Part shown: piece after piece, positions 49,678 through 63,857 of the stretch
Position numbering within the stretch: position 1 is the stretch's first letter
Layout: every line of letters begins with the position of its first letter
Virus record (IMG/VR): IMGVR_UViG_3300033463_000093
Location: 1-64,000 of that record
Reading direction: 5' to 3' (one strand)
Length of the DNA stretch: 64,000 nt
From: a virus
Lineage: Duplodnaviria > Caudoviricetes
Made by a program: the position numbers and the translations under genes
The notes under the pieces: generated by a model
Databases searched by the model: none
Told to the model about the DNA's origin: nothing
The model's input: only the letters and a program-made list of their open reading frames with translations

Positions 49678-50103
49678 ATGGGAAGAATGGGTAACACATT
49701 CGGCAGCCAGACGGTAAGCGCAGGTCACGCCCGCAAGGTGTGGAGAGAGGTCAAGGACCAGTTCCCCGCAGGCGGTGTCGTGTCCAACCTGAGCGACTGG
49801 CTCTCCGGCGGGGTCGGCAAGATTCCCGCAGGTACGTTCTGCAAATGGTATGACGACGGCGCTAACGGCAAGAAGGTGGTGTGCTACACTGCCGCACAGA
49901 TCAAGGCAGCCAGCGGCAACCCCGCAAGCCTCGGCATCAACGGCGCTACCCTCTATGACATCGACATCGAGGCAGGCGAGACCGTAGGAACGGCAACCGT
50001 CGTTTATGCTGGCGAGTACTATGACTTCATGATCAAGGACGCTGATGTCCGCACCATCGTGAAGGGCCTCGCTGCACTGAGTGAGATCAAGTTCGTGTCA
50101 TAG
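49678..50103 (+). CDS. Head decoration protein
   Basis: IPAGT..G.TLYDIDI..TVVYAG; lies between scaffold and MCP. Confidence 0.65.
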   Translation: MGRMGNTFGSQTVSAGHARKVWREVKDQFPAGGVVSNLSDWLSGGVGKIPAGTFCKWYDDGANGKKVVCYTAAQIKAASGNPASLGINGATLYDIDIEAGETVGTATVVYAGEYYDFMIKDADVRTIVKGLAALSEIKFVS

Positions 50104-50143: not shown

Positions 50144-51391
50144 ATGAATACTAATCCAGTAGGAATGTTTTCGGTGTTTGACAACGGTCTCGGCGGCCTT
50201 GACTGGCAGTCGTGGGTGGACCGCTACGAGGAGAAGTACGACGCCTTCGAGGTGGACGGCTTCGAGTTCGCCCCCACCACGTTGAACTACACCTTTGCGC
50301 AGCTCATTGCGAGCACCGGCGCAACGGCTCTGCCCACATGGGTGGATCCTGAGTCTCCTGGCTATGAGGCAGCCCTTAGAGAGCTGAGCGGCAGGACTGG
50401 CAACATCCCGACCGCAAAGCGCTTCTACCGCTTCAACCGCACCATCATCAACGAGCAGCTCCAGCTGATCCAGCGCTACGGCAACGTGGCCATGACCCCC
50501 GAGATGGAAGACATCTTCATGGGTCTGAACGATGAGGGTACGGACGGCCTCATCCAGATGTTCAACAACGCCCTGACACACATCCGCAACCAGGTTGTGT
50601 CCACGGGCCAGTTCGCCCTCACAAGCGTGAACAACCCGCGCGGCTTGCAGGGTATCACCATCGACTTCGGCATCGCACAGGACCACTTCGACGTCCTGAC
50701 AGGCAATGACGTATGGTGGACAAGCGATACTCACGCAAGAGAAGGCTCTTCTTCCGATCCTCTCGGCTACATGAAGAACCGTGTGCGCTGGATCCGCAAG
50801 GTCAAGCACTACGCAGGCCCCATCAAGCTCGAGATCTCTCAGGACGATTGGGACGACCTGCTCCTCCACTCGAAGGTACAGTCACGCCTCGGCATCTACT
50901 TCTATCCTACGACCACCGACGGTGCAACCCGCATTGCCGCCATCCAGGACAAGAGCGAGGATGCCCTCAAGGCAGCCATCAAGGCCATCATCAAGGTCGA
51001 CGAGATCGTGGTCAAGGACACCTATGCATTTGTGGACGCTCCCGGAACGGACGCCAACGGCGATCCCGACATCATCACCACCCGCATCGACAACTTCAAG
51101 GCAGGCAACATCGCCTTCATCCCGACGGGCAAGATCGGTGACATCCAGGGCGTGCAGCCGCTTTCCATCGGCTACGAGCCTGACAAGGTGGCATACTACA
51201 ACGGCGGTCGTCTGCTCCTGACCCAGCGTGCAAACCCGAAGACACACTCAGTGTACATCGAGGGTGAGTTCGCACAGATCTGCGTGCCGAGCGTCCCGCA
51301 GTGGATGTTCATCAGCACCGTCGTAGGTGACGGCTCTTCTTCCAGCTCTTCTTCAGGCTCTTCTTCGAGCGAATCGAGTTCAAGTGAGTAA
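50144..51391 (+). CDS. Major capsid protein (phage capsid E-like) with poly-Ser tail
   Basis: ITIDFGI..W..DPLG..IAFIP.G.IG..EGEFAQICVP; ends SSSSSSSGSSSSESSSSE. Confidence 0.85.
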   Translation: MNTNPVGMFSVFDNGLGGLDWQSWVDRYEEKYDAFEVDGFEFAPTTLNYTFAQLIASTGATALPTWVDPESPGYEAALRELSGRTGNIPTAKRFYRFNRTIINEQLQLIQRYGNVAMTPEMEDIFMGLNDEGTDGLIQMFNNALTHIRNQVVSTGQFALTSVNNPRGLQGITIDFGIAQDHFDVLTGNDVWWTSDTHAREGSSSDPLGYMKNRVRWIRKVKHYAGPIKLEISQDDWDDLLLHSKVQSRLGIYFYPTTTDGATRIAAIQDKSEDALKAAIKAIIKVDEIVVKDTYAFVDAPGTDANGDPDIITTRIDNFKAGNIAFIPTGKIGDIQGVQPLSIGYEPDKVAYYNGGRLLLTQRANPKTHSVYIEGEFAQICVPSVPQWMFISTVVGDGSSSSSSSGSSSSESSSSE

Positions 51392-51401
51392 AGGATAGCG
51401 T

Positions 51402-51842
51402 ATGGACTTCTCAAGACAAGTGAACTACAAGTCGGACTTCGACGTGCTCCTGCACGTTGTTGACGCGGACGGCAATGCTGTCGGCTTCCCGACATTCGAT
51501 TTCGTTCTGGCGTTCACCTCGAGCGGCCAGAATAAGTTCGAGGCTGGTCAGGCCAACGGCTTCAAGCGCGGTGTGAGCGATGCAGACGGTGACATCCGTG
51601 TCGTCTTCAATGACCATCACCTGTTGCCCGGCACCCTCAACCTTGAAGTTCGCGCCGACGTTGAGAACGACATCTATCCTGACGGAAAGAAGCTGTATGT
51701 GTTTGAAGTGCCCACGAACATCACCCTGACCAGTGGCGCCGGGGAGGTGAGCACGGGCATCTCTATTGACGTTAACCTGCCGTTTGCCGTGGGGTCTGCC
51801 AGCAGCAGCTCCAGCTCGGAGGGCGGCAGCAGCTCTGAATAA
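51402..51842 (+). CDS. Virion accessory protein with poly-Ser tail
   Basis: YKSDFD..DFVLAF..VFNDHHLLPG..IYPDG domain; ends SASSSSSSEGGSSSE. Confidence 0.65.
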   Translation: MDFSRQVNYKSDFDVLLHVVDADGNAVGFPTFDFVLAFTSSGQNKFEAGQANGFKRGVSDADGDIRVVFNDHHLLPGTLNLEVRADVENDIYPDGKKLYVFEVPTNITLTSGAGEVSTGISIDVNLPFAVGSASSSSSSEGGSSSE

Positions 51843-51863
51843 ACCAAAAGGAATCATCTTCGC

Positions 51864-52298
51864 ATGAATACGAGTAACGATACCGCAAATGTTCGCACGG
51901 TCGGGGACTGGCTCTTCGGCTGTGTGAACTTTGCCGTTCCCGACGAAGCCGTCGTGAACATCGCCATGGACAGGAACTTCTCCGTCGACACCGCAGCAAG
52001 TGACGTCGACAGGGACAGCCTGAGGCTCATGAAGGCAGACCTTTTCAAGTGGATCGTGCTTGGCGCAGGTAAGGTGAACAACACCTCCGACACCGACAAC
52101 GGCTGGAGTCACAGCGAGGGCGGCTATACGCTGTCCGAGTATGACAAGCAGCTGCTGATGGGCGAGGCCAACGCCATCTACGAGGAGCTTGAGCCCGAGA
52201 GCGTGTTCGGCAAGAAGAAGATCAGGATGCGGTCGGCAGGCATCATGCCCGCCTACCGTGACCTTGACGGAACGCCGTTACCAAGGAAGCCGCTATGA
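51864..52298 (+). CDS. Head-tail adaptor
   Basis: LMKADL..SDTDNGWSHSEGG; position after MCP. Confidence 0.65.
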   Translation: MNTSNDTANVRTVGDWLFGCVNFAVPDEAVVNIAMDRNFSVDTAASDVDRDSLRLMKADLFKWIVLGAGKVNNTSDTDNGWSHSEGGYTLSEYDKQLLMGEANAIYEELEPESVFGKKKIRMRSAGIMPAYRDLDGTPLPRKPL

Positions 52299-52672
52299 GA
52301 AAAACGAGAGTCGACAACCCGCGCTATCCGCACTACATACGGATCACCCGTAAGGTGGTGGCAGACTGGCTTGACGAGAGCAAGACGGAAGATGCGTTCA
52401 CGGTGTACGCAGGCCCCGGCAGGAGCTATACGGACACCACGACGACGGGTGACGCGAAAGTGGACTCCAACAAGCGCAAGTGCTCCATCCCGGTGCGTTT
52501 CGACGTATGGGGCGGCAATGTCGACGGAATGCAGCTTGTGCCGATGAGCGGAGACATGGTATACGTCATCAAGGGGAACATCCACGAGGAGTGGGAGGTC
52601 AGTGACTTCGAGCCGGACAACGACCGCTCCGTGGTGTACGGCGAGCATAACAGGAACTTCAATGAGCAGTAG
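52295..52672 (+). CDS. Head closure protein
   Basis: NPRYPH..GD.VYV; synteny. Confidence 0.55.
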   Translation: MRKTRVDNPRYPHYIRITRKVVADWLDESKTEDAFTVYAGPGRSYTDTTTTGDAKVDSNKRKCSIPVRFDVWGGNVDGMQLVPMSGDMVYVIKGNIHEEWEVSDFEPDNDRSVVYGEHNRNFNEQ

Positions 52673-52674
52673 TC

Positions 52675-53217
52675 ATGAGCAGCAACGGAAAGATAGCCAT
52701 TAAAAAGGTCTTTGACAATGTTCGCAAACGGGCGGAGGAAAAGGCTGAGGGAAAGCTTGCAGGCGGCCTTATGCCACTGCTTGAGATGGCCTATTCCGAG
52801 CTGAAGGGCTACAGGCCGTTGACAGGTAACCTGAACAACTCACTCGGTGTTGCGCTTTACAAGGACGGCAAGTGTATTGAGGCTCACGGAAGCATCGAGA
52901 TCACAGGCAGGCGTCCTGTCAGGACAACACTGAAGGAAGGAGACCTGTTCTGGGAACCTGTGACATGGAACGGAAACCACCTCGACGGACCGATACCGAA
53001 GACCGACTGGGTCGGAGACAAGAATATCTGGGCCGACGAGGAAGTCCTGAAGTGGCTTGAACGCTACGCTCCGACGAAAAAGGGATTCTCTTATCGTATC
53101 GTCAGTATCGTTGACTACGCAAAGTATCTTGAGACCAAGGACAACGTGAACGTGCTCAGCAGTCTTGCTGACCGTCTGCGCTCCATGGGAGGAAAGGTCG
53201 GCGACTTTAATCTCTGA
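52675..53217 (+). CDS. Neck/tail completion protein (HK97 gp10-like)
   Basis: LTGNLNNS..YAKYLE. Confidence 0.6.
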   Translation: MSSNGKIAIKKVFDNVRKRAEEKAEGKLAGGLMPLLEMAYSELKGYRPLTGNLNNSLGVALYKDGKCIEAHGSIEITGRRPVRTTLKEGDLFWEPVTWNGNHLDGPIPKTDWVGDKNIWADEEVLKWLERYAPTKKGFSYRIVSIVDYAKYLETKDNVNVLSSLADRLRSMGGKVGDFNL

Positions 53218-53222
53218 AAGAA

Positions 53223-53639
53223 ATGATCACACCGGAAGATATAAGGAAGACGATGGGGTTGCAGGCAAAGAAGGTCTGCGGCAAGATCTATCCGCAGGAC
53301 AGGCCGAGCGCCGTCACGGAGAAGCTGACGGAGTTCATCGTGGTCTCCCTCCCCTACTCCGAGGTCAACAGGACGCTTGGCGAAAACGACGACTGGTGGC
53401 TTGACGTCACCGTCGTGTACGAAATCTTCGTCGCTGACATCAAGACGGCAGCGGATCCGAACCGGCTTGACGATGACGCCATGAGGCGTCTGCGTGAGGC
53501 TCTCCTTGGAACCTTCCCCGTTGTTGACGGCGAAAAGAGGTTCAAGATCGTGCGTCCACGCACTGTCATACCGGCATCCAGTGACGGCAACGGTTATCAC
53601 TATACGCGCATTCAGGCAAAGATGACGACATTGGTTTAA
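53223..53639 (+). CDS. Tail terminator
   Basis: KIYPQDRPSA..FIVVSLP; precedes the tail tube. Confidence 0.6.
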   Translation: MITPEDIRKTMGLQAKKVCGKIYPQDRPSAVTEKLTEFIVVSLPYSEVNRTLGENDDWWLDVTVVYEIFVADIKTAADPNRLDDDAMRRLREALLGTFPVVDGEKRFKIVRPRTVIPASSDGNGYHYTRIQAKMTTLV

Positions 53640-53682
53640 GAATACAAGTAATTTAGTTTAACAGTTAAAAATAACAACGACT

Positions 53683-54246
53683 ATGGCAACAAAGACAAAA
53701 TCTGAATTGAAGGACGTTTTCAATGGCCCTTCGTCCTTGCTGTACCAGAGTGCAGCCCTCGGCAATCCGATGGTGCTGGACCCCGACTATGACGTTCCCG
53801 TCAAGGTCGACAGCATCGAGTTCGAGCAGGGTGAGCCTGACATCGAGCACTACAAGGTCATCGGCCTCGCCGGCGACTGGGTATCCTCCTCGGAGGCAGG
53901 TGACATCACCATCAGCTTCCGCGTCCCCACCAAGAGCACGGACATCCTGAAGCTCGCCTACGGCAACGACGCAGTGACCTCAAAGTCGCTGACCTACGGC
54001 AGCGGCTCGTTCACGGGCGACGGCGTTGTGCTGACCAACAAGAAGATCGTCGGCACCTGGGCCATCCTGAACGACACGGGCAACCAGCTCCTGATCCTGA
54101 ACAACACCGCGCTGTACGCCAGCATGGTGATGGACTCTGACGCCAAGGGCGTGGTGGCCATCGACTTCAACGGAACCATCGAGTCGGACGGCTCCAACCC
54201 CGACATCCTGTTCCTCAAGAAACAAGGCTCCAGCAGCAGCGAGTAA
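53683..54246 (+). CDS. Major tail tube protein with Ser tail
   Basis: Beta-rich 187 aa; ends KQGSSSSE. Confidence 0.75.
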   Translation: MATKTKSELKDVFNGPSSLLYQSAALGNPMVLDPDYDVPVKVDSIEFEQGEPDIEHYKVIGLAGDWVSSSEAGDITISFRVPTKSTDILKLAYGNDAVTSKSLTYGSGSFTGDGVVLTNKKIVGTWAILNDTGNQLLILNNTALYASMVMDSDAKGVVAIDFNGTIESDGSNPDILFLKKQGSSSSE

Positions 54247-54333
54247 CACTTGCTGCGTGAGTGACTGAAAACCCGAGGGGCGGCGGTGACGAGAGAGCCG
54301 CTGCCCCTTATTCATTAACAAACGACAGAGATT

Positions 54334-55674
54334 ATGGACGACTACAGGATTTGGGTAACGTACCACAAGGACGAGCAGGTCTCGCAGTATGGCCTGCACG
54401 ACGATGACACGCACAGGATCTTTGCCGCCAACCGCGACATAGAGGGGAAGAACATCAACGAGATGAACCCGGTCTACAGCGAGATGGTGACGATGTGGTA
54501 TGCGTGGAAGAACAACGTCAGGAGCCCGTACGTCGGCTTCAACCACTACCGCAGGCAGTTCAACGTGAGCAGGCTGCCGGGCAAGGGCGAGTGCCAGGTG
54601 TACAGGATCATCGACTTCGGCGGCATCAGCGTGTACGACCAGTATGCACGCTGCCATAATGTCAAGGACATGGATGCTGTCCTCTCGCTGCTCGACAAAA
54701 AGTACGGCAAGGACAACGCATATACGAAATACATCAGGAACAGCAATACCCTGATAGCGAACTGCTGCTTCCTGATGAAATGGGCTGACTTCACGAAGCT
54801 CTGCAAGTTCTTCTTCGCCATCCTCGACGACTTCTCCGCCATGTGCGGATGCCAGACGCTCGACGACTGGAGGAAGAAGGCGCAGGCCGACTTCGGCAAC
54901 AACAGGCCCGATTACCAGACGAGGGTGCTATCGTTCCTTGCGGAAAGGCTTATCTCCGCGTGGATCAGCGTGAACCTCTCTCCATATATCGACGGCAGGA
55001 ACGTGGCTGTCGTGAACTACAACACCACGAAGCTGACGGAGGCAGCCATCATGTCGCTGTTCAAGCACACGCCTGGTTGTCATGTCTACGTCTTCGACAA
55101 CAGCGATGCGGAGCCATTCAAGACGAAGCTCCCTAATGTCGAGGTCATCGACAACACCAAGGGCAAGCTGGTGGACTTCGATGCAGAGCTTGCGAAATAT
55201 CCAGACAAATGGGAGCGTGACAAGGTCAAGAGCAACTACGGCAGCGCCAAGCACTCGATGAGCATACAGAAGCTGATGGAGCTTATCCCAGGCGGATTCG
55301 TGCTCATGGACTCGGACGTCCTGTTCAAGCAGGACATCGGAAAGTTCTGGGACTACAACGTCGCATGCCTCGGCACAGAGGACTTGAAACACGGAGTACC
55401 CCTGCTCTTGCCGTTCCTATGCTGGCTGAACTGCGTGAAGCTCAACGAAAACGGCATCGGCTACTTCAACGGAGAGAAGATGTGGGCGCTGAGCGAAAAG
55501 GAGCCTAACCAGCACTACGACACAGGCGCATGGCTTCTCGAGGAGGTGCGCAGGAAAAGTCTTCCTGTGGAGTATGTGAACATCTGGGACTATGTCATCC
55601 ATCTGGGTCACGGCTCATGGAAGGACAAGGACACCGACAAATGGCTTGAGGAGAACGCTGTCCTGTGGAAGTGA
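54334..55674 (+). CDS. Bifunctional glycosyltransferase: DUF4422/GT111-like + GT2-like
   Basis: IWVTYHK..YSEMVTMWYAWKN..YVGFNHYRR..ERL; then VVNYNT..VFDNSD..FVLMDSDV (DxD). Confidence 0.85.
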   Translation: MDDYRIWVTYHKDEQVSQYGLHDDDTHRIFAANRDIEGKNINEMNPVYSEMVTMWYAWKNNVRSPYVGFNHYRRQFNVSRLPGKGECQVYRIIDFGGISVYDQYARCHNVKDMDAVLSLLDKKYGKDNAYTKYIRNSNTLIANCCFLMKWADFTKLCKFFFAILDDFSAMCGCQTLDDWRKKAQADFGNNRPDYQTRVLSFLAERLISAWISVNLSPYIDGRNVAVVNYNTTKLTEAAIMSLFKHTPGCHVYVFDNSDAEPFKTKLPNVEVIDNTKGKLVDFDAELAKYPDKWERDKVKSNYGSAKHSMSIQKLMELIPGGFVLMDSDVLFKQDIGKFWDYNVACLGTEDLKHGVPLLLPFLCWLNCVKLNENGIGYFNGEKMWALSEKEPNQHYDTGAWLLEEVRRKSLPVEYVNIWDYVIHLGHGSWKDKDTDKWLEENAVLWK

Positions 55675-56552
55675 GACCGATAGACTACGTCGTGCCGATG
55701 GTGTTCCATGGCGACCCGTTGTGGCAGGAGGATTTCCGCAAGGTGCACCTCCGCTATGACGAGCGGAACAAGTACGACTTTGTGCGTTTCCGCAGCTGGG
55801 ACACCGAGGAGCTGCTGATACGGTGCGTACGGAGGTTCATGCCCTTCGTGCGTACCATATATATCCTTCTCGCGCGTGAGAGCCAGAGGAAGCCGTGGAT
55901 GGACGTAAACGGCATCAGGGTGGTCTACCACAGGGAGTTCATCCCCGAGAAGTTCCTTCCGACGTTCAACAGCTGCGCCATCGAGATGTTCCTCCACAGG
56001 ATCCCCGGCCTTAGCGAGCGTTTCATCTACGGCAACGACGACATGTTCCCGCTTGCGCCACTGACGGAAAAGGACTTCTTCGAGGGCTATATCCCTTGTC
56101 TGAGGCATGGCGAGAAGCCTTTCCCTGACAACCCGAACATCTTCCATCTCTCTTGCAGGAACGGTCTCAACTTCGTCGCCTATGAGTTCGGGAAGAAGTA
56201 CACCGACACATGGGTCAAGGGCGGCCACAGCCTCACACCGATGCTGAAAGGCACATGGGAGTACCTGTGGAAGAGGGGCGGCGAGATTGAGGCGAGCATC
56301 AGCGCAGTCCGGGAGCCATGCAACTTCAACCAATGGCTATGCCCGTGGTGGCATTATCTGGCGGGCAACTATATCGACAGGGTCCCGTCGAGGACATACG
56401 TCAGCACAAGGAACAGCATCGAAGAAGTGGTGAAGGCCATGTCAACTTCAAAGGGAATCGTATGTGTCAACGACAATGAATGCGCCGACAACTACATGGA
56501 ATACGGCAACGCCGTCAAGGCTTGCATAGAAAAGATACTTGAAAAGAGATAA
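55665..56552 (+). CDS. Stealth-family hexose-1-phosphate transferase
   Basis: CR1 IDYVVPMV, CR2 LPTFNSCAIE..RIPGLSERFIYGNDDMF, CR4 CVND; GTG start. Confidence 0.88.
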   Translation: MEVRPIDYVVPMVFHGDPLWQEDFRKVHLRYDERNKYDFVRFRSWDTEELLIRCVRRFMPFVRTIYILLARESQRKPWMDVNGIRVVYHREFIPEKFLPTFNSCAIEMFLHRIPGLSERFIYGNDDMFPLAPLTEKDFFEGYIPCLRHGEKPFPDNPNIFHLSCRNGLNFVAYEFGKKYTDTWVKGGHSLTPMLKGTWEYLWKRGGEIEASISAVREPCNFNQWLCPWWHYLAGNYIDRVPSRTYVSTRNSIEEVVKAMSTSKGIVCVNDNECADNYMEYGNAVKACIEKILEKR

Positions 56553-56553
56553 T

Positions 56554-57015
56554 ATGGCAGAGATAGAACAACCTACGATAGACGTCCAGAAGATGCTCGA
56601 CGACCTTATCAGTCGTGAACCTGACGTGATAAAGGTGTGTGGCAAGAATCGTAAGATACACTGGCTCCATAACGGAACGGTGAGAAAGTTCTCGCACATC
56701 ATGATCAAGGATAAGAATCCGTGGAGACGAAACGTGAAGGTCTGTGCGTGCGTGTTTCTCAACAGGAAGTACGGGTTTATGACATGGCTGCTTCTGTGGT
56801 CATGGCATTGGATATACTGGAGATGGCTCTACTATATAAGGGACATCGACCAGGTAGAAGTGGCAAAGGTGCTTGACTGCGCCAAAAAAAAAATTCAGTT
56901 GGATCCATTAGCGATGGCTACCATATTGGCGACCGGGATGATGGACACGATGATGACGATGGCTCGACACGAGTATGGCCCAGCCGAACGAGGTGGGGAT
57001 CGGCCTACTCCCTGA
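56554..57015 (+). CDS. Tail assembly chaperone (G)
   Basis: Upstream of the tape measure; A10 run at 56884-56893. Confidence 0.7.
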   Translation: MAEIEQPTIDVQKMLDDLISREPDVIKVCGKNRKIHWLHNGTVRKFSHIMIKDKNPWRRNVKVCACVFLNRKYGFMTWLLLWSWHWIYWRWLYYIRDIDQVEVAKVLDCAKKKIQLDPLAMATILATGMMDTMMTMARHEYGPAERGGDRPTP

Positions 57016-57023
57016 GCGAGAAG

Positions 57024-57287
57024 ATGCCGTGGCTCCTTGAGAGAAAGTTCGGAATCAGGGCTTTTGACTATTGGTGGGGCTACACATCCTGCGAGATAGA
57101 GCTGATGGTCATGGACCAGCCGGTCATCAGTTACGGCAAGAGCAAGAACAAGCGCTCCATGATGGCTTCAAGAAAAGAGGTTGACGAGCTTGAACAGCTA
57201 CAGCAGAAATGGGAGAAGAAACGTAATGGCAGGACTTTCGTTGGACAGAAAGTTGACCTTGGGGAGTTCCTGAATCAGAAAATATAA
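57024..57287 (+). CDS. Tail assembly chaperone -1 frameshift extension (GT)
   Basis: The -1 frame is open from 56877 through this ORF. Confidence 0.65.
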   Translation: MPWLLERKFGIRAFDYWWGYTSCEIELMVMDQPVISYGKSKNKRSMMASRKEVDELEQLQQKWEKKRNGRTFVGQKVDLGEFLNQKI

Positions 57288-57317: not shown

Positions 57318-60300
57318 ATGGCAGCAGCAGATAAACTTTGGTTAGAGCTTGGCGTCAGGGATGAGATATCAGATGTTTTGAAAAACCTTATGATAGGTGC
57401 TGAAAAACTTGCAGACGCACTGTCTGATGACTCAGCCGAGTTAAAAAATATATATAGAAACATCATGGACGTTGCCAACGTCTACGATAAGATATATATA
57501 GCACAGAAACGGATCAGTAGCCTCAAGGGCGTATCTCTCAGTGCGGAAGAGAAGAAGGGTCTGCGCGACATGACAAAGGACCTTGAAAAGATCAGAAAGC
57601 AGTTCGAACAAATCCTTAATGACCCTAACAGGCTTATGGAAAGCGGTGAGGCTCATTTTGACAAGATGAGGACGAACGTTGACCTCATGGTTAAAAGCAC
57701 TCTTCGTTATGTCGACAATATTGAAGCCAAAGAGGCCGCAGAGGCCAAGAATGCCGCCAATGAAGAGCGTCGTATAGACAGTCTGAAAGATAAGCTTTAT
57801 GAACTTCAGCGTTACAGGAAGCAGCTGTCTGATGCCATTGCGAATGCAGCGCCAGGAACAAACCTTGCAGACGCCACAAGCCTTATAAACGGACTTTCGT
57901 CAAGAATATCGGCAGTTCGTAGTGCTGAGCGTAACGGGAAAGGACTGCCAGCAAGTGCATCTGGTGCAGACTACGAGGAGTTTATCAAAAGGGTTACGGG
58001 AGAAGTGAGGAGTCTCACCTCTGCGACAAATGATTATGACAAGACGTTGAAAGAGAACGAACGTCTCCAAAGGTCGATCAACAAGATATACCTTGATACG
58101 CAAAGCGAAAAGAATATTGCGGGAATAAGAAGACAGACAAACGAATACACTGCCCTTGGGAAGAAACTTGGAGAGCTGGCAAAGCTCATGGCTGAGTTGA
58201 AAAAAGAGGAATCTGGAATAAAGAAAGGACTTATTACAGAGCCTACATATACAAGCGATAAAATTTCTGAACGCCTGAATGAAATAGACAGGACTTACAA
58301 AGAGGATCTTGCAATAGTCCGGCAAATGGAGAAGGATGACGCTGACGCCAAGAACAAGAAGGCGGCAGCAGCAAGAAGGGCGTCAGATGCGATTCAGGCC
58401 CTTTCTCACATGAACAGCAATCTCATCTCGTCGTACAACCGTGTTGCAGAGGCGGGGTCAAGAGCAAACAACATAACCATACAACTTCAACACCAACTGG
58501 CTGGCTATGCCGGCCTATACGGAATAGAGCGTATCTTAAAGTCCGTCATAACGATAGGTGGCCAGTTTGAGTTCCAACACGTTGCCCTACAGAACATCCT
58601 TGGTGACATGCAGCAGGCCAATACGCTGTTCAGGCAGTTACAGGATATGGCCGTAGAATCTCCAAAGACATTCATGGAGCTGACTGGTTATACAAAACAG
58701 CTTTCCGCATATCAGATTCCATACGAGGAGCTGTACGACACTACCAAGAGACTTGCAGACATATCCACCGGTCTCGGCGTTGACATGAGCCGCCTTATCC
58801 TCGCTTACGGTCAGGTGAGAAGCGCCGCCGTCCTCAGAGGACAGGAACTCCGTCAGTTTACGGAGGCGGGCATTCCGCTTGTACAAAAACTTGCAGAGAA
58901 GTTTACGCAGCTGAACGGGAAAGTTGTTACCACAGGAGAGGTTTTTAGCCTTATATCAAAACGTGCCGTACCATTCAAGATGGTTAAGGAAATCCTGTGG
59001 GATATGACAAACGAGGGAGGTCAGTTTGCAGATATGCAGAGCAAGCTTGCAGATACGCTTTACGGTAAATACCAGAAGCTTCAGGATACCTGGCAGATAA
59101 TGCTCGGAAGGATTGCCGACGGCAACGGCATGATGGGAAAGTTCCTGAAAGGCTCTATAGAAGGCGTTGTACAACTTGTCAATGTGTTGAACACTGTAGC
59201 CCCGCTTATCCTTGCTCCGTTTATCGGAAAAGGTATCGACAGTGCAAAGAAGGGAGCCAAGGGGCTTATTGGTAATATTACCGGTGAGACAGCAGTCCGC
59301 AATATGGAGATCGCCAAGCTCAAGCAAGCCAATGCATTAGAGAAGGAGCGTATTTTGAACGGAAGACAGCTGACTCAAATCGAGCAGGATATCGTCAGAC
59401 AGAAGAATGTGCTGACGAGTAATGAGTTGCGCCTCCTTCTCCTTGAGGATCAGATAACAGAGCGCCAGCTTGCCCAGATGGCAAATTCAGGTAAGATAAA
59501 CAAGTTCGCAGCAGCACGTCTTCTACTTGAGCAAGGCTATACAAAGGAACAGATACGTCAAATCCAGCTTGGAAAATATGAGATACTGAAAGGCGACTCT
59601 TTCATAAAGAAATCTGCAAAAGGTGTATGGAACTTCATGGGTGGCTGGATAGGAGCCGGCATGCTTGCTCTTGGTGCTTACGCCTCACTTGCCCAACGTG
59701 TGGACGAACAGGTTGAAAGGGCAAGACAGACGTCTGAAGCTGCGTCAAACGATATGCTTTCCGATTTCAGGCAGGTTAATGACCTGTATAATGAGGTTAG
59801 CAAAAAAGGTCCTGGCTCAACGGACGAGATGACCTCTTCAATACAGCGCATGACGTTTGCCCTGAAGCAAAGCGGAAGCTACACCAAAGAGCTTAACGAG
59901 ATGCTTGAGGGGACTGACGACATAAGGGAGAAGTACACGCTTTTGTATCAAGAACTTCAGAAGGTGTCAGACGAGTACCTTCGTATGAAGGAAAACGTAC
60001 AGGCGTATCTTGAGGCGGCAAACAGGGTCGGAGAAGGAAACTGGTTTACCAAGTTCTTCAACGACAACATGAACGAAGACATCAAGAACTGGGGTGACGC
60101 AAACATTGCAAAAAATGTTGCAAAAAAAGGCGTAGACAGATACAGTGCGGCCGTTAAGCTCCAGCTTGAATTGTTTTACAAAAATATAGGCAAATGGAAC
60201 GAGAAGGAGATGGCCGATCTCGACTGGCAGAGTCTTTTCGACAAGCTATCAGACCAGGAAAGGACGTTTTTCAAAAACTTCTTGGATGCAGGACGCAAGA

Positions 60301-63300
60301 GCGACTTTGACACGGCGGTGTATGAGTCTGTCAAGAAATACACTTCTGCAATAGATAAGCTGAAAGAGCAGGAAGAAGAGGTCGATTCCCAGATGCAGGA
60401 ATACGCCGACACCATCGAGGTTGCTCTTGGAGAGACCTTGTCGAAACGCGGGCTTGACTTGAAGGATATGCCAAAATGGGAGGACGAAGACCTTAAAAAG
60501 TTCCGTGACGCCATAAACGATGTGGTGAACAGCTACGACCTTGACTCTGAAACAAAACAGCGTTTCAAGGACAAGCTCTACGGCAAGCTGCTTGACGAAA
60601 ATCTCATAATAAGGATAAAGGCTCTCCCTGAATACAAGGAGGAGGAGTTGTCGGAATGGCAGCGTGGCGTTAATGAGTATTTCGAGAGCAACAAAATCAA
60701 CATCGTAGTTGATGCGCAAAGCTCTCTTGAAAGCGTGGAAAAAGAGCTTCAAAACAAGCACGAGGAGTTCCAGAACCAAATGGATCGTTCAGGAAAGATT
60801 CTTGTGTCCTTCGGTTTTGACCTCAGTAACCTTCCTAATGACATAGAGGAAGGCATAGGTATGCTCCGCCCGGAATATCAGGGTCTGGTTCGTCATGCTT
60901 TCGCTGAATTTATCGAAGGAAAAACCGGGACCGAAAAAACCACGCAGGCCGGCAAGGATCTTGGAATAAGCGTTGTCAAGAAGAATAAAGGGTCGAGTTC
61001 AGGAGGCTCAAAAAAGGACAAGAAACTTGACGAGATCAAGGAGGCGTATGAGCTTTACAAGAAATTCTTCTCCGAGCTCGAAAATGCCAGAAGCATCTAT
61101 GGGTCTGACGCAATGGGTTGGCTTAAAGAAAACGGTTTTTCGGAGGTCTTCGGATGGAAGGGGATTACTGACCTGACCAACTACGGACAGACTGTCAGGG
61201 AGCTCACAAAAGATTTCAAAGCCAACACCGATGAGCGCAAAAAGTTTGTCAACTCTATTGATGCAGACATTGTAACGCAGAAACGAAAAGAAGAGACCGA
61301 AGCGACCATGGAGTATGTCGAGGAGCTACAGAAGATGATGAACATCATGTCTGAGAGCTATAACACATACAAGAAGTGGTACGAGCTGACTGGTGACGAG
61401 AACCTTGCAGCGCGTATTGCTGGTGTAGCCGAGAACACCACCTACTCCACCTATCTCCGTGATCAGATGCAGAAGCAGCTCACCAAGACAAAGTACGCCG
61501 TATCTCCCGAAGATGTCTTTGGAATGAAGGAGGCGGAAGTTAAGAAACTCTTTGGTGAGAAGAGTGCCATCGCAAGCTATTGGAAGGCATGGCAGGATAA
61601 CGAGAAGGTCTTGAAAAAGGAAGAGCTTGACCGTTACGAGGAGGCCATTAAGAGCTCCAAGAGCTATGAAGACAAAATTGACGATATCAATCGTAAGCTG
61701 AAAGAACAAATCGCTTCGGTTGAAAAACTGGCAAGAAGCGACGAGGAACGTATCCGACTCACAGAACATCTGACAGAAAATGCAGAGAAAGATATCAGCA
61801 AGATTAAATGGGAACAGTTTAAGGATCAGTACAACTGGGGAGAAGTCTTTGGTGACCTTGGTAACGTGCCGCTAAGACAGCTTAAAAAACTTGTCAGCGC
61901 AATGAGGGAGTTGTCCAAAACGACAAGCCTGAGTGCAACCGAAGCAAAGGCTTTCCAAGAAGGAATGAGTAAGGTTGTGAACCAACAAGCCATCCTTGAT
62001 CCTTTGACGGGCATTAATTCTGCTTTGAGCAACTACACGGCGGCAAGGAAGGAGATAGCAAGACTCGAAGGGTTGCGTGAAGGTGTCAGACGTGGTTATT
62101 CACAATACACAAGCCAGTTTAAGGATGAAGATGCTCTTGACAAAGCTATAGAAAATGTAAGGAAGACAATGAATACGGCGCTTTCTGATTTGCAAAAGGC
62201 AATCAAAGCGCTTGCGAACAACATAAATACGCTTGGAACGGCACTCAAGAACATCGGTAATTCCGTTGGCGGGCCGTTAGGTGATGTTTTCAATGGGATT
62301 GGCAGCATCTTCGGAGGTCTTGGAAATAGTATTTCCGCAATATCTAATATTGACCTTAATGCACAAGGAATATCTGCTATTGCAAGTAAGGCAGGCGCTG
62401 TCGCAACTGTTGTTTCTGCAATGATAGACATGAACAAGCAGTTGTCGAAACTTCTCCCAGACTCCTATGATCAATACCAAAAATATGCAGAGAAAGCGCG
62501 CGAGGTAAATAAGCTTAGGGAAGCCGTGGATGACTATACGGTATCTGTAGCTAATGCAAAAGTTGCTGAAAGCCAATGGTTCGCCGGGAACAGTTTGTCT
62601 AAATTGCAGGCGGAAGGTGAGAAGGCGAAAGACACCCTGAAGTCATACTACAAAGAGCTTTATGAGGCTCAGGAGGCGTACCAAGAAAAAGGTGCTGGAA
62701 TCAGTAAGGCTATACTTCCGGCAACTATAGCAGCTGCCGTAGTAGCAGGTTTATTTACTTTTGGAGCAGGCTCTGCTCTTGTTGTAAGTATCGGAACTGC
62801 TCTTGCGTCTGCTCTTGGAAGTGCAGCTCTTGGAGCGGCTGTTACTGCGGCTATTGCTGCTGGCGTTGGTTCTGCGATAGGCCAGATAATACAATCTGCG
62901 GTCTCTGGTATCACATACAAAGACGGTCAGGTCGATGCTCGAAGTAACATGAAGATACAGACCCAGCATTCAAGCTTCTGGAGAGGAGAGAAGACACAAA
63001 ATCTTGAGGAATGGGCAAGAGAACAACTTCATGCAGAATTGTTCGACGACGAAGGACTTGTCAATCTTGAAGCGGCAGAACAAATTCTTGAAAAATACGG
63101 AAACAAGCTTGTCGGCGATACAGAAGAAACTCTGAAAAGGCTTGTTGCTTTACGAAAAGAGTATGATGAGTTTATAAGAAATATTGAGGAGTATGTAGGA
63201 GAGATCGGAACGTCGCTTTCTGACAACATGACAAACGCTATGTGGGATTGGCTAACAAGCGGCAAAGATGCTCTTGACAGCTTTAAAGAGTATGCTAACG

Positions 63301-63857
63301 ACACATGGAAGAGTATAGCTCAGGATATTGTTAAGACTTTCATGAAAGTGACTGTGCTTGACAAATATTCAGACACCATGAAGGAGCTATTCAAAGCATG
63401 GAGTCTCGGAGGGATGTCTGATAGCGATCTCGTCTCGGCTGTAAGTGCGATAGCAGGAGCAATAACGACGGATTTCCAGAACGCACTCCCTGTTGCACAA
63501 CAGCTTATCGAGATGGTAAACAGAGCGTTTGGAAGCCAAGGGTTTGATATTACCGGAAGCGATAGCGGCTCTTCCACAGGTTCCTCTATTAAGAGCATAA
63601 CAGAAGGAACGGCGGATTTGTTGGCTGGTTATATTAATGCCATCAGGGCAGACGTTGGTATGAATCGTATCATGATAGCACAGTACTATCCGCAGTTTAT
63701 GAATGCCATGACCCAGGGAAACATAATAGCAGACGCACAACTTGCTCAGCTGAGGATGGTAGTACAGAACACCGGAAGGAATGCAGGCTTGGTAGAGCAG
63801 ATATACGATCTGTTACATCGTGTGGCCCCAGACGGCACCAAATGGAATGTCAGATAG
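57318..63857 (+). CDS. Tape measure protein (2179 aa)
   Basis: Long helical protein; SPKTFMEL..LADISTGLGVDMSRLILAYGQV..ELRQFTEAGIP tape-measure domain. Confidence 0.95.
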   Translation: MAAADKLWLELGVRDEISDVLKNLMIGAEKLADALSDDSAELKNIYRNIMDVANVYDKIYIAQKRISSLKGVSLSAEEKKGLRDMTKDLEKIRKQFEQILNDPNRLMESGEAHFDKMRTNVDLMVKSTLRYVDNIEAKEAAEAKNAANEERRIDSLKDKLYELQRYRKQLSDAIANAAPGTNLADATSLINGLSSRISAVRSAERNGKGLPASASGADYEEFIKRVTGEVRSLTSATNDYDKTLKENERLQRSINKIYLDTQSEKNIAGIRRQTNEYTALGKKLGELAKLMAELKKEESGIKKGLITEPTYTSDKISERLNEIDRTYKEDLAIVRQMEKDDADAKNKKAAAARRASDAIQALSHMNSNLISSYNRVAEAGSRANNITIQLQHQLAGYAGLYGIERILKSVITIGGQFEFQHVALQNILGDMQQANTLFRQLQDMAVESPKTFMELTGYTKQLSAYQIPYEELYDTTKRLADISTGLGVDMSRLILAYGQVRSAAVLRGQELRQFTEAGIPLVQKLAEKFTQLNGKVVTTGEVFSLISKRAVPFKMVKEILWDMTNEGGQFADMQSKLADTLYGKYQKLQDTWQIMLGRIADGNGMMGKFLKGSIEGVVQLVNVLNTVAPLILAPFIGKGIDSAKKGAKGLIGNITGETAVRNMEIAKLKQANALEKERILNGRQLTQIEQDIVRQKNVLTSNELRLLLLEDQITERQLAQMANSGKINKFAAARLLLEQGYTKEQIRQIQLGKYEILKGDSFIKKSAKGVWNFMGGWIGAGMLALGAYASLAQRVDEQVERARQTSEAASNDMLSDFRQVNDLYNEVSKKGPGSTDEMTSSIQRMTFALKQSGSYTKELNEMLEGTDDIREKYTLLYQELQKVSDEYLRMKENVQAYLEAANRVGEGNWFTKFFNDNMNEDIKNWGDANIAKNVAKKGVDRYSAAVKLQLELFYKNIGKWNEKEMADLDWQSLFDKLSDQERTFFKNFLDAGRKSDFDTAVYESVKKYTSAIDKLKEQEEEVDSQMQEYADTIEVALGETLSKRGLDLKDMPKWEDEDLKKFRDAINDVVNSYDLDSETKQRFKDKLYGKLLDENLIIRIKALPEYKEEELSEWQRGVNEYFESNKINIVVDAQSSLESVEKELQNKHEEFQNQMDRSGKILVSFGFDLSNLPNDIEEGIGMLRPEYQGLVRHAFAEFIEGKTGTEKTTQAGKDLGISVVKKNKGSSSGGSKKDKKLDEIKEAYELYKKFFSELENARSIYGSDAMGWLKENGFSEVFGWKGITDLTNYGQTVRELTKDFKANTDERKKFVNSIDADIVTQKRKEETEATMEYVEELQKMMNIMSESYNTYKKWYELTGDENLAARIAGVAENTTYSTYLRDQMQKQLTKTKYAVSPEDVFGMKEAEVKKLFGEKSAIASYWKAWQDNEKVLKKEELDRYEEAIKSSKSYEDKIDDINRKLKEQIASVEKLARSDEERIRLTEHLTENAEKDISKIKWEQFKDQYNWGEVFGDLGNVPLRQLKKLVSAMRELSKTTSLSATEAKAFQEGMSKVVNQQAILDPLTGINSALSNYTAARKEIARLEGLREGVRRGYSQYTSQFKDEDALDKAIENVRKTMNTALSDLQKAIKALANNINTLGTALKNIGNSVGGPLGDVFNGIGSIFGGLGNSISAISNIDLNAQGISAIASKAGAVATVVSAMIDMNKQLSKLLPDSYDQYQKYAEKAREVNKLREAVDDYTVSVANAKVAESQWFAGNSLSKLQAEGEKAKDTLKSYYKELYEAQEAYQEKGAGISKAILPATIAAAVVAGLFTFGAGSALVVSIGTALASALGSAALGAAVTAAIAAGVGSAIGQIIQSAVSGITYKDGQVDARSNMKIQTQHSSFWRGEKTQNLEEWAREQLHAELFDDEGLVNLEAAEQILEKYGNKLVGDTEETLKRLVALRKEYDEFIRNIEEYVGEIGTSLSDNMTNAMWDWLTSGKDALDSFKEYANDTWKSIAQDIVKTFMKVTVLDKYSDTMKELFKAWSLGGMSDSDLVSAVSAIAGAITTDFQNALPVAQQLIEMVNRAFGSQGFDITGSDSGSSTGSSIKSITEGTADLLAGYINAIRADVGMNRIMIAQYYPQFMNAMTQGNIIADAQLAQLRMVVQNTGRNAGLVEQIYDLLHRVAPDGTKWNVR

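Follow-up and report, generated by a model that had tools for sequence, protein, structure and literature searches.

Serine-rich C-terminal tags that co-vary with Stealth and WbbM-like transferases suggest virion (phospho)glycosylation in Bacteroidales siphoviruses

O-glycosylation of mycobacteriophage virions has reportedly been described by Freeman et al. (2023, Cell Host Microbe 31:1216) for Che8, Corndog, and Myrna. Natural glycosylation of the phage particle has been demonstrated in mycobacteriophages only, and reviews up to 2026 cite that single study. According to two reports, phage glycosyltransferases add the glycans to capsid and tail tube subunits at their C-termini (PMC12619734; PMC12363180). 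Here, we describe a comparable locus in the phage represented by IMG/VR record IMGVR_UViG_3300033463_000093 (G000; 72,098 bp, estimated 87% complete), of which positions 1 to 64,000 constitute the window analyzed throughout. Four multi-copy particle proteins of this phage, including a putative one of 146 amino acids (aa), carry C-terminal serine tags, and two soluble transferases, a WbbM-like fusion and a Stealth protein, are encoded in the same late structural operon on the + strand of the record. Comparative sequence analysis indicates that several capsid lineages acquired or lost the tags in step with the enzymes, and we consider it probable that the phage enzymes carry out cytoplasmic O-(phospho)glycosylation of the exposed C-terminal tags, sugar-coating the virion. 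A first-pass annotation of this DNA had drawn the analogy to C-terminal glycosylation in mycobacteriophages, which agrees with the literature (PMC12619734; PMC12363180), and had considered such glycosylation undescribed for Bacteroidota phages; our literature search also found no description. The phage was placed among LoVEphage-like Bacteroidales siphoviruses because its capsid protein shares 60% identity with the major head proteins of three phages that have neither tags nor enzymes, namely Bacteroides phage LoVEphage, BI-TP1, and Phocaeicola phage PV4-TP1. Its hosts are probably Bacteroidales bacteria of the rumen Prevotella type, and the nearest enzyme-bearing bacterial contig, from a scan of GTDB with the Stealth protein, belongs to a Prevotellaceae rumen metagenome-assembled genome (MAG).

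The major capsid protein (MCP; 415 aa, HK97-type; window positions 50144..51391, + strand), recognized through PF03864 (E-value 1.4e-5; 24.8 bits for a cut-off of 22.9) and phrog_29 (3.2e-17), ends in GDGSSSSSSSGSSSSESSSSE, with Ser at 15 of the last 21 residues. This candidate acceptor tag, GDG-S7-G-S4-E-S4-E (51326..51388, +), is added past a conserved ...QWMFISTV. The next open reading frame (ORF), encoding the 146-aa head-module protein (51402..51842, +), ends in GSASSSSSSEGGSSSE and includes the tag GSA-S6-E-GG-SSSE (51792-51839), and the tail tube protein (187 aa; 53683..54246, +) ends in the tag QG-SSSS-E (54223-54243). The three tails and their shared terminal SSSE are present as the first-pass annotation had described them. 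Its labeling of the 146-aa product as an accessory virion protein holds in part: the Ser tail is there, and with no family match in Pfam, PHROGs, NCBIfam, PADLOC, or ESM Atlas, virion membership is putative. Since the 53683-54246 product likewise had no family match, its assignment was checked by fold. An AlphaFold2 (AF2) model with a predicted local distance difference test score (pLDDT) of 84.5, in which the last seven residues are of low confidence as a disordered tag would give, had its best Foldseek matches in the Protein Data Bank (PDB) to 9jgh, Sf11, lambda gpV (7t2e), T1, and Bxb1 (probability 1.00, template-modeling scores 0.40-0.55), and this modeled fold confirms a siphovirus tail tube protein.

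Chance and sequence composition do not readily produce such ends. Across all six-frame ORFs of at least 60 aa in the window, no product other than the MCP, the 146-aa head-module protein, and the tail tube ends in SSSE, whereas 0.0016 such ends would be expected among 83 genes from the frequencies of Ser (6.5%) and Glu (7.2%) in the window (P for three or more ~7e-10). The tag Ser codons are mixed, with all six (TCT, TCC, TCA, TCG, AGC, and AGT) in use, and the runs were therefore selected at the protein level rather than generated by repeat slippage; the mixture of TCN and AGY codons also rules out a microsatellite or simple-repeat artifact. A fourth tagged protein is encoded just past the window (G000 64513-65118, equivalent to L078:1514-2119), between the immediately preceding tape measure gene and an ORF of >2320 aa, and ends in ...TLTPSSTSS. 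Its resemblance to distal tail (Dit) proteins in the ESM Atlas is a lead only. Members of this Dit-like p177 family are tagged in the window phage and in two other enzyme-bearing phages, L008 and L009, where they end in ...STSSSSD or ...SESSSS, and untagged in the enzyme-less L001 and L064. The terminal residue of the tag is mostly E, and D, N, S, GE, and EG are seen too, so that the SSSE-COOH end proposed at first does not hold as a strict rule.

Beyond this phage, Ser-rich tails were found in 35 of the 120 closest capsid clusters of a 5.8-billion-protein collection, and come in two kinds: poly-Ser with an SSSE end, and (S/G/T)n. The latter were seen in P0004, P0007, P0013, P0020, and P0023-P0033, and in L108, L109, L111, and L114 (example ...ASVSGSGSGSGTGS). 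A DNA-pattern search of IMG/VR (AGY x4, GAG, TAA) returned 21 matches, nearly all of them chance occurrences in non-coding frames, with one genuine ORF, in L173; this search is uninformative because genuine tags use mixed codons.

The first enzyme is a 446-aa protein (gene 54334-55674) that had been described as a DUF4422/GT2 fusion, of which the first half is upheld and the second is not. Its N-terminal domain is DUF4422, of GT111 type (54334..54978, +; PF14393, 6.6e-24, 85.4 bits for a cut-off of 25), and matches WbbM (6u4b) by sequence (2e-8). Residues 220-446 (54991..55674, +) form, in an AF2 model of the fusion with pLDDT 85.6, a GT-A domain whose fold is GT8/GT24-like, with VIA Z 13.0-13.6 to the UGGT catalytic domain, LgtC, GlyE, and glycogenin, and LARGE1 likewise among the retaining GT-A matches at Z about 13. 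This domain has no Pfam match, while its stand-alone homologues of ~230 aa, which exist in L010, L011, L012, and L022, have sub-threshold matches to GT8 (0.02-0.05) or GT2 (0.06); the label "GT2" is therefore not established. As a whole, the fusion resembles WbbM over residues 2-446 (VIA Z 19.1; Foldseek 9.8e-15). The DxD motif and a downstream His of GT8 enzymes bind metal, and in alignment A1 the window protein has D255 as an invariant position along with D326-x-D328 and H423; across 15 homologues, D326-S-D328 and H423 hardly vary. Sequence and model together point to a WbbM-like two-domain glycosyltransferase that joins DUF4422/GT111 to a GT8-like GT-A domain. WbbM makes a disaccharide-repeat galactan; among the fold matches of the second domain, GlyE glycosylates a serine-rich-repeat adhesin, and glycogenin glycosylates protein.

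The second enzyme, whose identification as a Stealth protein was borne out, is a predicted Stealth-family hexose-1-phosphate transferase of 295 aa (55665..56552, +). Its gene shares 10 nt with the fusion gene and 14 nt with the following chaperone-position gene. Stealth_CR2 (PF11380) matches with E 2.2e-27 and 95.8 bits for a cut-off of 39.4 (97.9 bits in the own-genome search), and is the only Stealth model to do so, as the Pfam CR1, CR3, and CR4 models give no match to this protein. The N-terminal IDYVVPMV aligns with the CR1-like start of GNPTAB, and CR4 was detected among the phage homologues in L029 only. Sequence matches in the PDB include the GNPTAB GlcNAc-1-phosphotransferases 7dxi and 7s6n and Mycobacterium tuberculosis CpsY (8j2n); the NDD region aligns with LNDD of GNPTAB 7dxi and SNDD of CpsY 8j2n, and N124-D125-D126, H188, and R216 are invariant across 16 phage homologues. 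Hydrophobic segments were looked for, and are absent, in both the Stealth and the fusion protein. Described Stealth enzymes move hexose-1-phosphate from a nucleotide sugar onto a sugar acceptor, giving a phosphodiester (PMC7729866). The window protein is thus a predicted sugar-1-phosphate transferase, and the glycan coat of the first-pass annotation, although supported in substance by co-variation, would for this reason probably be phosphodiester-linked rather than a plain glycan.

To compare relatives, we collected related loci by scanning IMG/VR with the Stealth protein (31 loci), three capsid proteins, and a capsid alignment, JGI metagenome contigs with the capsid alignment, and GTDB genomes with the Stealth protein. 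Of 55 distinct MCPs whose genomic context could be read, 16 had both Stealth and tail, four had Stealth and no tail, 35 had neither, and none had a tail without Stealth (Fisher 1.6e-10, without phylogenetic correction). Conversely, 19/19 tail-bearing phages with readable context carry enzymes. These include the tailed MCPs found through MCP homology alone (L047, L048, L054, L107, L153, and L111), all of which come with enzymes. The first-pass annotation had named, as an observation that would refute virion glycosylation, relatives that lack the glycosyltransferases and keep identical Ser tails; this was checked, and 0/35 distinct Stealth-negative relatives have the tails.

The association recurs in separate capsid lineages, tags being gained or lost with the cassette in MCP families A, B, and C and in the L011 lineage. 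Tagged proteins of ~400 aa from the other lineages, like the window MCP, match phrog_29. In family A, enzyme-less phages end in ...QWMFISTVTA and enzyme-bearing ones in ...QWMFISTVVGDG followed by a Ser run; the corresponding ends are ...HMYISTVTA and ...HMYISTIAPHTAE plus a Ser run in family B, and ...YGQVKIYTPQ and ...YGRVKVFGVAP plus a Ser run in family C. The tag is, in each case, a clean add-on behind a conserved protein end. The MCPs of the closest enzyme-less relatives are 80% identical to that of the window and stop before the tag. In the nearest such relative, L003, the tail tube protein is 88% identical and ends in ...LFLKKSA rather than ...LFLKKQGSSSSE, and the homologue of the 146-aa protein (67% identical) has an acidic tail without poly-Ser, so that three proteins (MCP, 146-aa protein, and tail tube) change together between the window and L003. 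The tagged genes extend from the MCP gene, 3 kb upstream of the cassette, to the Dit-like gene, 8 kb downstream, and with distances of up to 8 kb between co-varying genes, hitch-hiking with the cassette fails as an explanation of the pattern. For the tail tube tag, whose gene adjoins the cassette, hitch-hiking was likewise rejected as a full explanation, given that distant tags co-vary too.

Tag type and enzyme variant also appear to be linked. L111, the sole (S/G/T)n phage with readable context, was recovered from the metagenome scan and combines a (G/S/T)n capsid tag with a divergent Stealth protein (37% identity), a stand-alone GT-A gene, and a tail tube ending in ...AAGSGS. This pairing of a divergent tag with a divergent Stealth suggests that tag and enzyme co-evolve, each enzyme variant perhaps having a tag to suit it. 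Taken with the data above, it makes quite unlikely an alternative in which the Ser-Glu tails carry no modification, serve as acidic, hydrophilic spacers that aid solubility or assembly or prevent aggregation, and are linked to the enzymes by shared ancestry or niche. Low-complexity Ser/Gly/Glu tails are indeed widespread, and a Ser-tailed protein occurs in the Stealth-less record of phage L173, but unmodified spacers would leave the 0/35 result unexplained, and would not account for tags that come and go with the cassette in several lineages (A, B, C, and L011), for relatives 80-88% identical that differ at the tail only, for the shift of tag type along with enzyme variant in L111, or for mixed codons that point to selection for Ser itself.

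In enzyme-bearing siphovirus-type relatives with readable context, the Stealth gene follows the tail tube gene and precedes the next tail gene, and it occurs alone, beside DUF4422, GT-A, GT92/GT2, or phosphoribosyltransferase-like genes, or fused. A single ~740-aa Stealth-DUF4422-GT-A protein, a Rosetta-stone fusion, is encoded in L014-L018 and L030. The gap between tail tube and chaperone genes measures 55-209 bp without enzymes and 1.8-2.3 kb in the window, L111, and L153; in the window, the enzymes fill a 2.3-kb gap. Stealth stands alone between tail tube and chaperone, with untagged capsid and tail tube, at L020:9995-10858 and L024:7425-8324. A ~300-aa protein with a weak phosphoribosyltransferase-domain match joins the Stealth/glycosyltransferase genes at L009:9142-10002, L025:12455-13360, and L066:10455-11360, and other cassettes carry GT92/GT2_4 enzymes (L010:8364-9149, L012:8474-9220, and L107:5017-6519). 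The glycan probably differs between phages.

Stealth genes were also seen in other phage types. In a larger type, represented by L025-L028 (117-135 kb) and L066 (Prevotellaceae MAG RUG12526), the Stealth/glycosyltransferase genes follow a ~3300-aa protein, and downstream a 426-aa protein ends in ...GGGDSDSSI and a 193-aa protein in ...VESDSSN, which are shorter Asp/Ser tags on proteins with no family named. In the 195-kb AT-rich phage L029 (L029:8852-10921), a 130-aa protein ending in ...ENSSSSSY is encoded directly upstream of a GT2-Stealth fusion of 551 aa in which CR2 and CR4 are both detected. L066 was the one phage-like locus in the GTDB scan, the remainder being ordinary polysaccharide loci; more distant bacterial homologues lie in polysaccharide loci (L067-L073).

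Several observations weigh against modification of the tags by the phage enzymes. When the MCP tree, built leaving out the tail columns, is used to count independent enzyme+/- contrasts, the tail follows the enzyme in 4-5 of 5-6 and the reverse direction is seen in 0, so a sign test on these contrasts alone yields p 0.06-0.125, a modest value because contrasts are few. L020 and L024/L034 bear Stealth with an intact motif and no tag on visible structural proteins, and L015, also with an intact Stealth motif, has the tag on the tail tube only and an untagged MCP. In the unrelated 160-kb phage L173, a 319-aa protein (694-1650, - strand) with no PHROG match ends in NSSSSSSE in a Stealth-less record that is 84% complete; this end may have arisen by chance or may serve some other enzyme as its tag. 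Searches of 50,697 GenBank phage records (tblastn) with the Stealth protein and the GT-A domain returned no homologue. In addition, the 146-aa protein is a putative virion component, outward exposure of the MCP C-terminus is assumed, and the modification is deduced from sequence and comparison for a phage known from a metagenomic record.

The weakest link of the mechanism is the initiating step on Ser, because the acceptors of characterized Stealth enzymes are sugars, not protein serine (PMC7729866). L047 and L048 bring this out, as both are fully tagged and encode Stealth alone, no other phage glycosyltransferase having been found in records that are 17-59% complete; either Stealth acts directly on Ser in these phages, or a host enzyme primes the tag. 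A broader version of the latter, in which host enzymes modify the tails (by phosphorylation or through a host glycosyltransferase) and the phage cassette elaborates, caps, or acts on another acceptor, would fit both the described sugar acceptors and the lack of a phage initiating glycosyltransferase in L047 and L048. We nevertheless regard it as unlikely, since most tagged phages encode their own GT-A domain(s) beside Stealth and the L047 and L048 records are so incomplete, and it would be a variant of glycosylation of the tags rather than its opposite.

The head part of the operon runs from a scaffold-like gene through a decoration-like gene, the MCP, the 146-aa protein, and four connector-type genes to the tail tube, and the tail part continues with the 446-aa glycosyltransferase, the 295-aa Stealth protein, two chaperone-position ORFs, and the 2179-aa tape measure protein (57318-63857). 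The head decoration-like protein (141 aa; 49678..50103, +), 49% identical to BI-TP1 gp35 ("head decoration protein"), ends in ...SEIKFVS without a Ser tail. The first-pass annotation had placed the enzymes between tail tube and tail chaperone: the location is right and the tail tube is supported by fold, while the chaperone label was given by position, as the two small ORFs concerned (158 and 87 aa; 56539-57015 and 57024-57287, +) have no family matches. Their homologues come directly after the tail tube gene in enzyme-less relatives.

An RNA hairpin follows the tail tube stop codon (54275..54309, +; -35.5 kcal/mol, z -5.6, 0/200 shuffles as good) and is probably an attenuator or stabilizer as well as a cassette linker. 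The junction in front of the glycosyltransferase gene (54244-54336) comprises the stop, this strong hairpin, TTAACA, a 14-nt leader, and ATG, an arrangement shared with the hairpin-TTAACC-leader linkers that separate the minus-strand accessory genes at 23.9-33.8 kb. From this match, the cassette may have entered through the same gene-swapping route. The linker is one reason to consider that the enzymes are lysogenic-conversion or moron genes that alter the host capsule or O-antigen, for example to block superinfection, with Ser tails unrelated. Stealth and WbbM-type enzymes typically belong to capsule and O-antigen pathways, the distant bacterial homologues in L067-L073 lie in polysaccharide loci, and three Stealth-bearing lineages have no MCP tag. 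Such a role is improbable all the same: it leaves unexplained why two to four separate virion proteins are tagged solely in the presence of the enzymes (0/35 without), the genes sit within the late tail operon in overlapping frames, and neither enzyme has a detected membrane segment. A defense-system role was also considered and is unsupported, PADLOC giving no defense-system match for the components examined.

Phage glycosyltransferases often act on DNA (PMC12619734), and the enzymes could in principle glycosylate hypermodified bases and so evade restriction. This is very unlikely here, as the 72-kb record holds no thymidylate-synthase or dNMP-hydroxymethylase homologue and the genes, located in the tail operon, vary together with tags on proteins. 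We know of no Stealth enzyme that acts on DNA.

Returning to glycosylation of the tags by the phage enzymes, we propose that late in infection both enzymes would act in the cytoplasm on host nucleotide sugars, recognizing the exposed, disordered Ser run together with the C-terminus and attaching sugars to Ser hydroxyls. The GT-A domains would add sugars and might polymerize them, a step proposed because of the WbbM-like architecture of the fusion, and Stealth would add hexose-1-phosphate to give phosphodiester-linked anionic glycans. In Stealth-only phages, the enzyme might phosphoglycosylate Ser directly or extend a host-added sugar. Head and tail would thereby be covered with a dense glycan brush, hydrophilic and negatively charged, which in the gut or rumen could protect the particle against antibodies, proteases, or non-productive adsorption. 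This shielding or colloidal-protection role is the least certain part of the proposal and is speculative, drawn by analogy; antibody shielding is reported for mycobacteriophages (PMC12363180). A more specific order of events is possible, if doubtful: Stealth would place sugar-1-phosphate directly on tag Ser (Ser-O-phosphate-sugar), after which the WbbM-like enzyme would polymerize a repeat glycan on this primer. Were this so, the particle would bear a capsule-like phosphoglycan coat anchored on a short encoded tag (poly-Ser plus a C-terminal acidic residue), it would be the first protein phosphoglycosylation among bacteria or phages, and tag and enzyme could be transferred together to glyco-engineer capsids and proteins.

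Phage-encoded glycosylation of capsid and tail tube C-termini is already described for mycobacteriophages (PMC12619734). The present case adds a new host phylum, a new enzyme set, a location in the tail operon, an explicit tag, and, probably, phosphoglycan chemistry. If our interpretation is correct, virion glycosylation would be common in gut and rumen Bacteroidales phages, as the frequency of Ser-tailed capsid clusters (35/120) suggests, and would have arisen independently, with enzymes unrelated to those of mycobacteriophages. Because the tag is readable from genomes, virion glycosylation could then be predicted from metagenomes. The probable phosphodiester-linked sugars would represent a chemistry undescribed for any phage, and a (phospho)glycan brush would matter for how phages persist, interact with mucus and the immune system, and adsorb in dense gut communities. 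A short tag and two soluble enzymes would, in addition, offer a practical means of decorating capsids and proteins.

Each component has counterparts in described systems. With other Stealth transferases (GNPTAB, the meningococcal serogroup A/X capsule polymerases, and CpsY), the window enzyme shares a CR2 with NDD and predicted sugar-1-phosphate transfer; it differs in being short (295 aa) and soluble, in matching the CR2 Pfam model alone, and in its place in a phage structural operon; where those enzymes act on a capsule polymer or N-glycan, it would act on a protein tag or on a sugar that the tag carries. The fusion shares two-domain architecture and fold with WbbM, the bifunctional Klebsiella D-galactan I polymerase (6u4b; GT111 DUF4422 plus GT8), whereas identity is 18%, the phage protein has 446 aa compared with about 600, and its acceptor is presumably a protein-linked primer and not a lipid-linked O-antigen. 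Glycosylation of serine-rich-repeat adhesins in Gram-positive bacteria (GtfA/B plus GT8 enzymes such as GlyE, 5gvv) resembles the proposed reaction in that soluble glycosyltransferases O-glycosylate low-complexity Ser-rich segments in the cytoplasm, and the C-terminal domain of the fusion resembles the GlyE fold (Z 13.2). The proposed phage acceptors are, however, short C-terminal virion tags and not long internal repeats, the phage has no GtfA/B-type GT4 initiator, and the adhesin pathway has no Stealth counterpart. Dictyostelium, Leishmania, and Trypanosoma phosphoglycosylate Ser in the eukaryotic secretory pathway, forming sugar-1-P-Ser on Ser-rich stretches, and the chemistry in the phage would be the same (Ser-O-phosphate-sugar on poly-Ser) if Stealth acts directly on Ser. 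To our knowledge, Ser phosphoglycosylation has not been reported for bacteria or phages, and our literature search likewise found no report.

The closest parallel overall is with the mycobacteriophages. Hosts differ at the phylum level, being Bacteroidota here and Actinomycetota there, and so do the enzymes, which here are a Stealth phosphotransferase and a GT111/GT8-like fusion. Close homology to Che8 gp110 or Corndog gp38 is unlikely, since the 50,697 GenBank phage records should include mycobacteriophages and gave no tblastn match to the Stealth protein or the GT-A domain. The genes here lie inside the tail operon, whereas Che8-type genes lie near the genome end (PMC11256854), and the Bacteroidales system, known so far from its genes, has an explicit, recognizable poly-Ser-Glu tag and likely phosphodiester chemistry. 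Both systems nonetheless have phage-encoded glycosyltransferases; at the sequence level the window likewise has its Ser tags at the C-termini of MCP and tail tube, where they co-vary with the enzymes, and the proposed outcome in each is a glycan shield on the particle.

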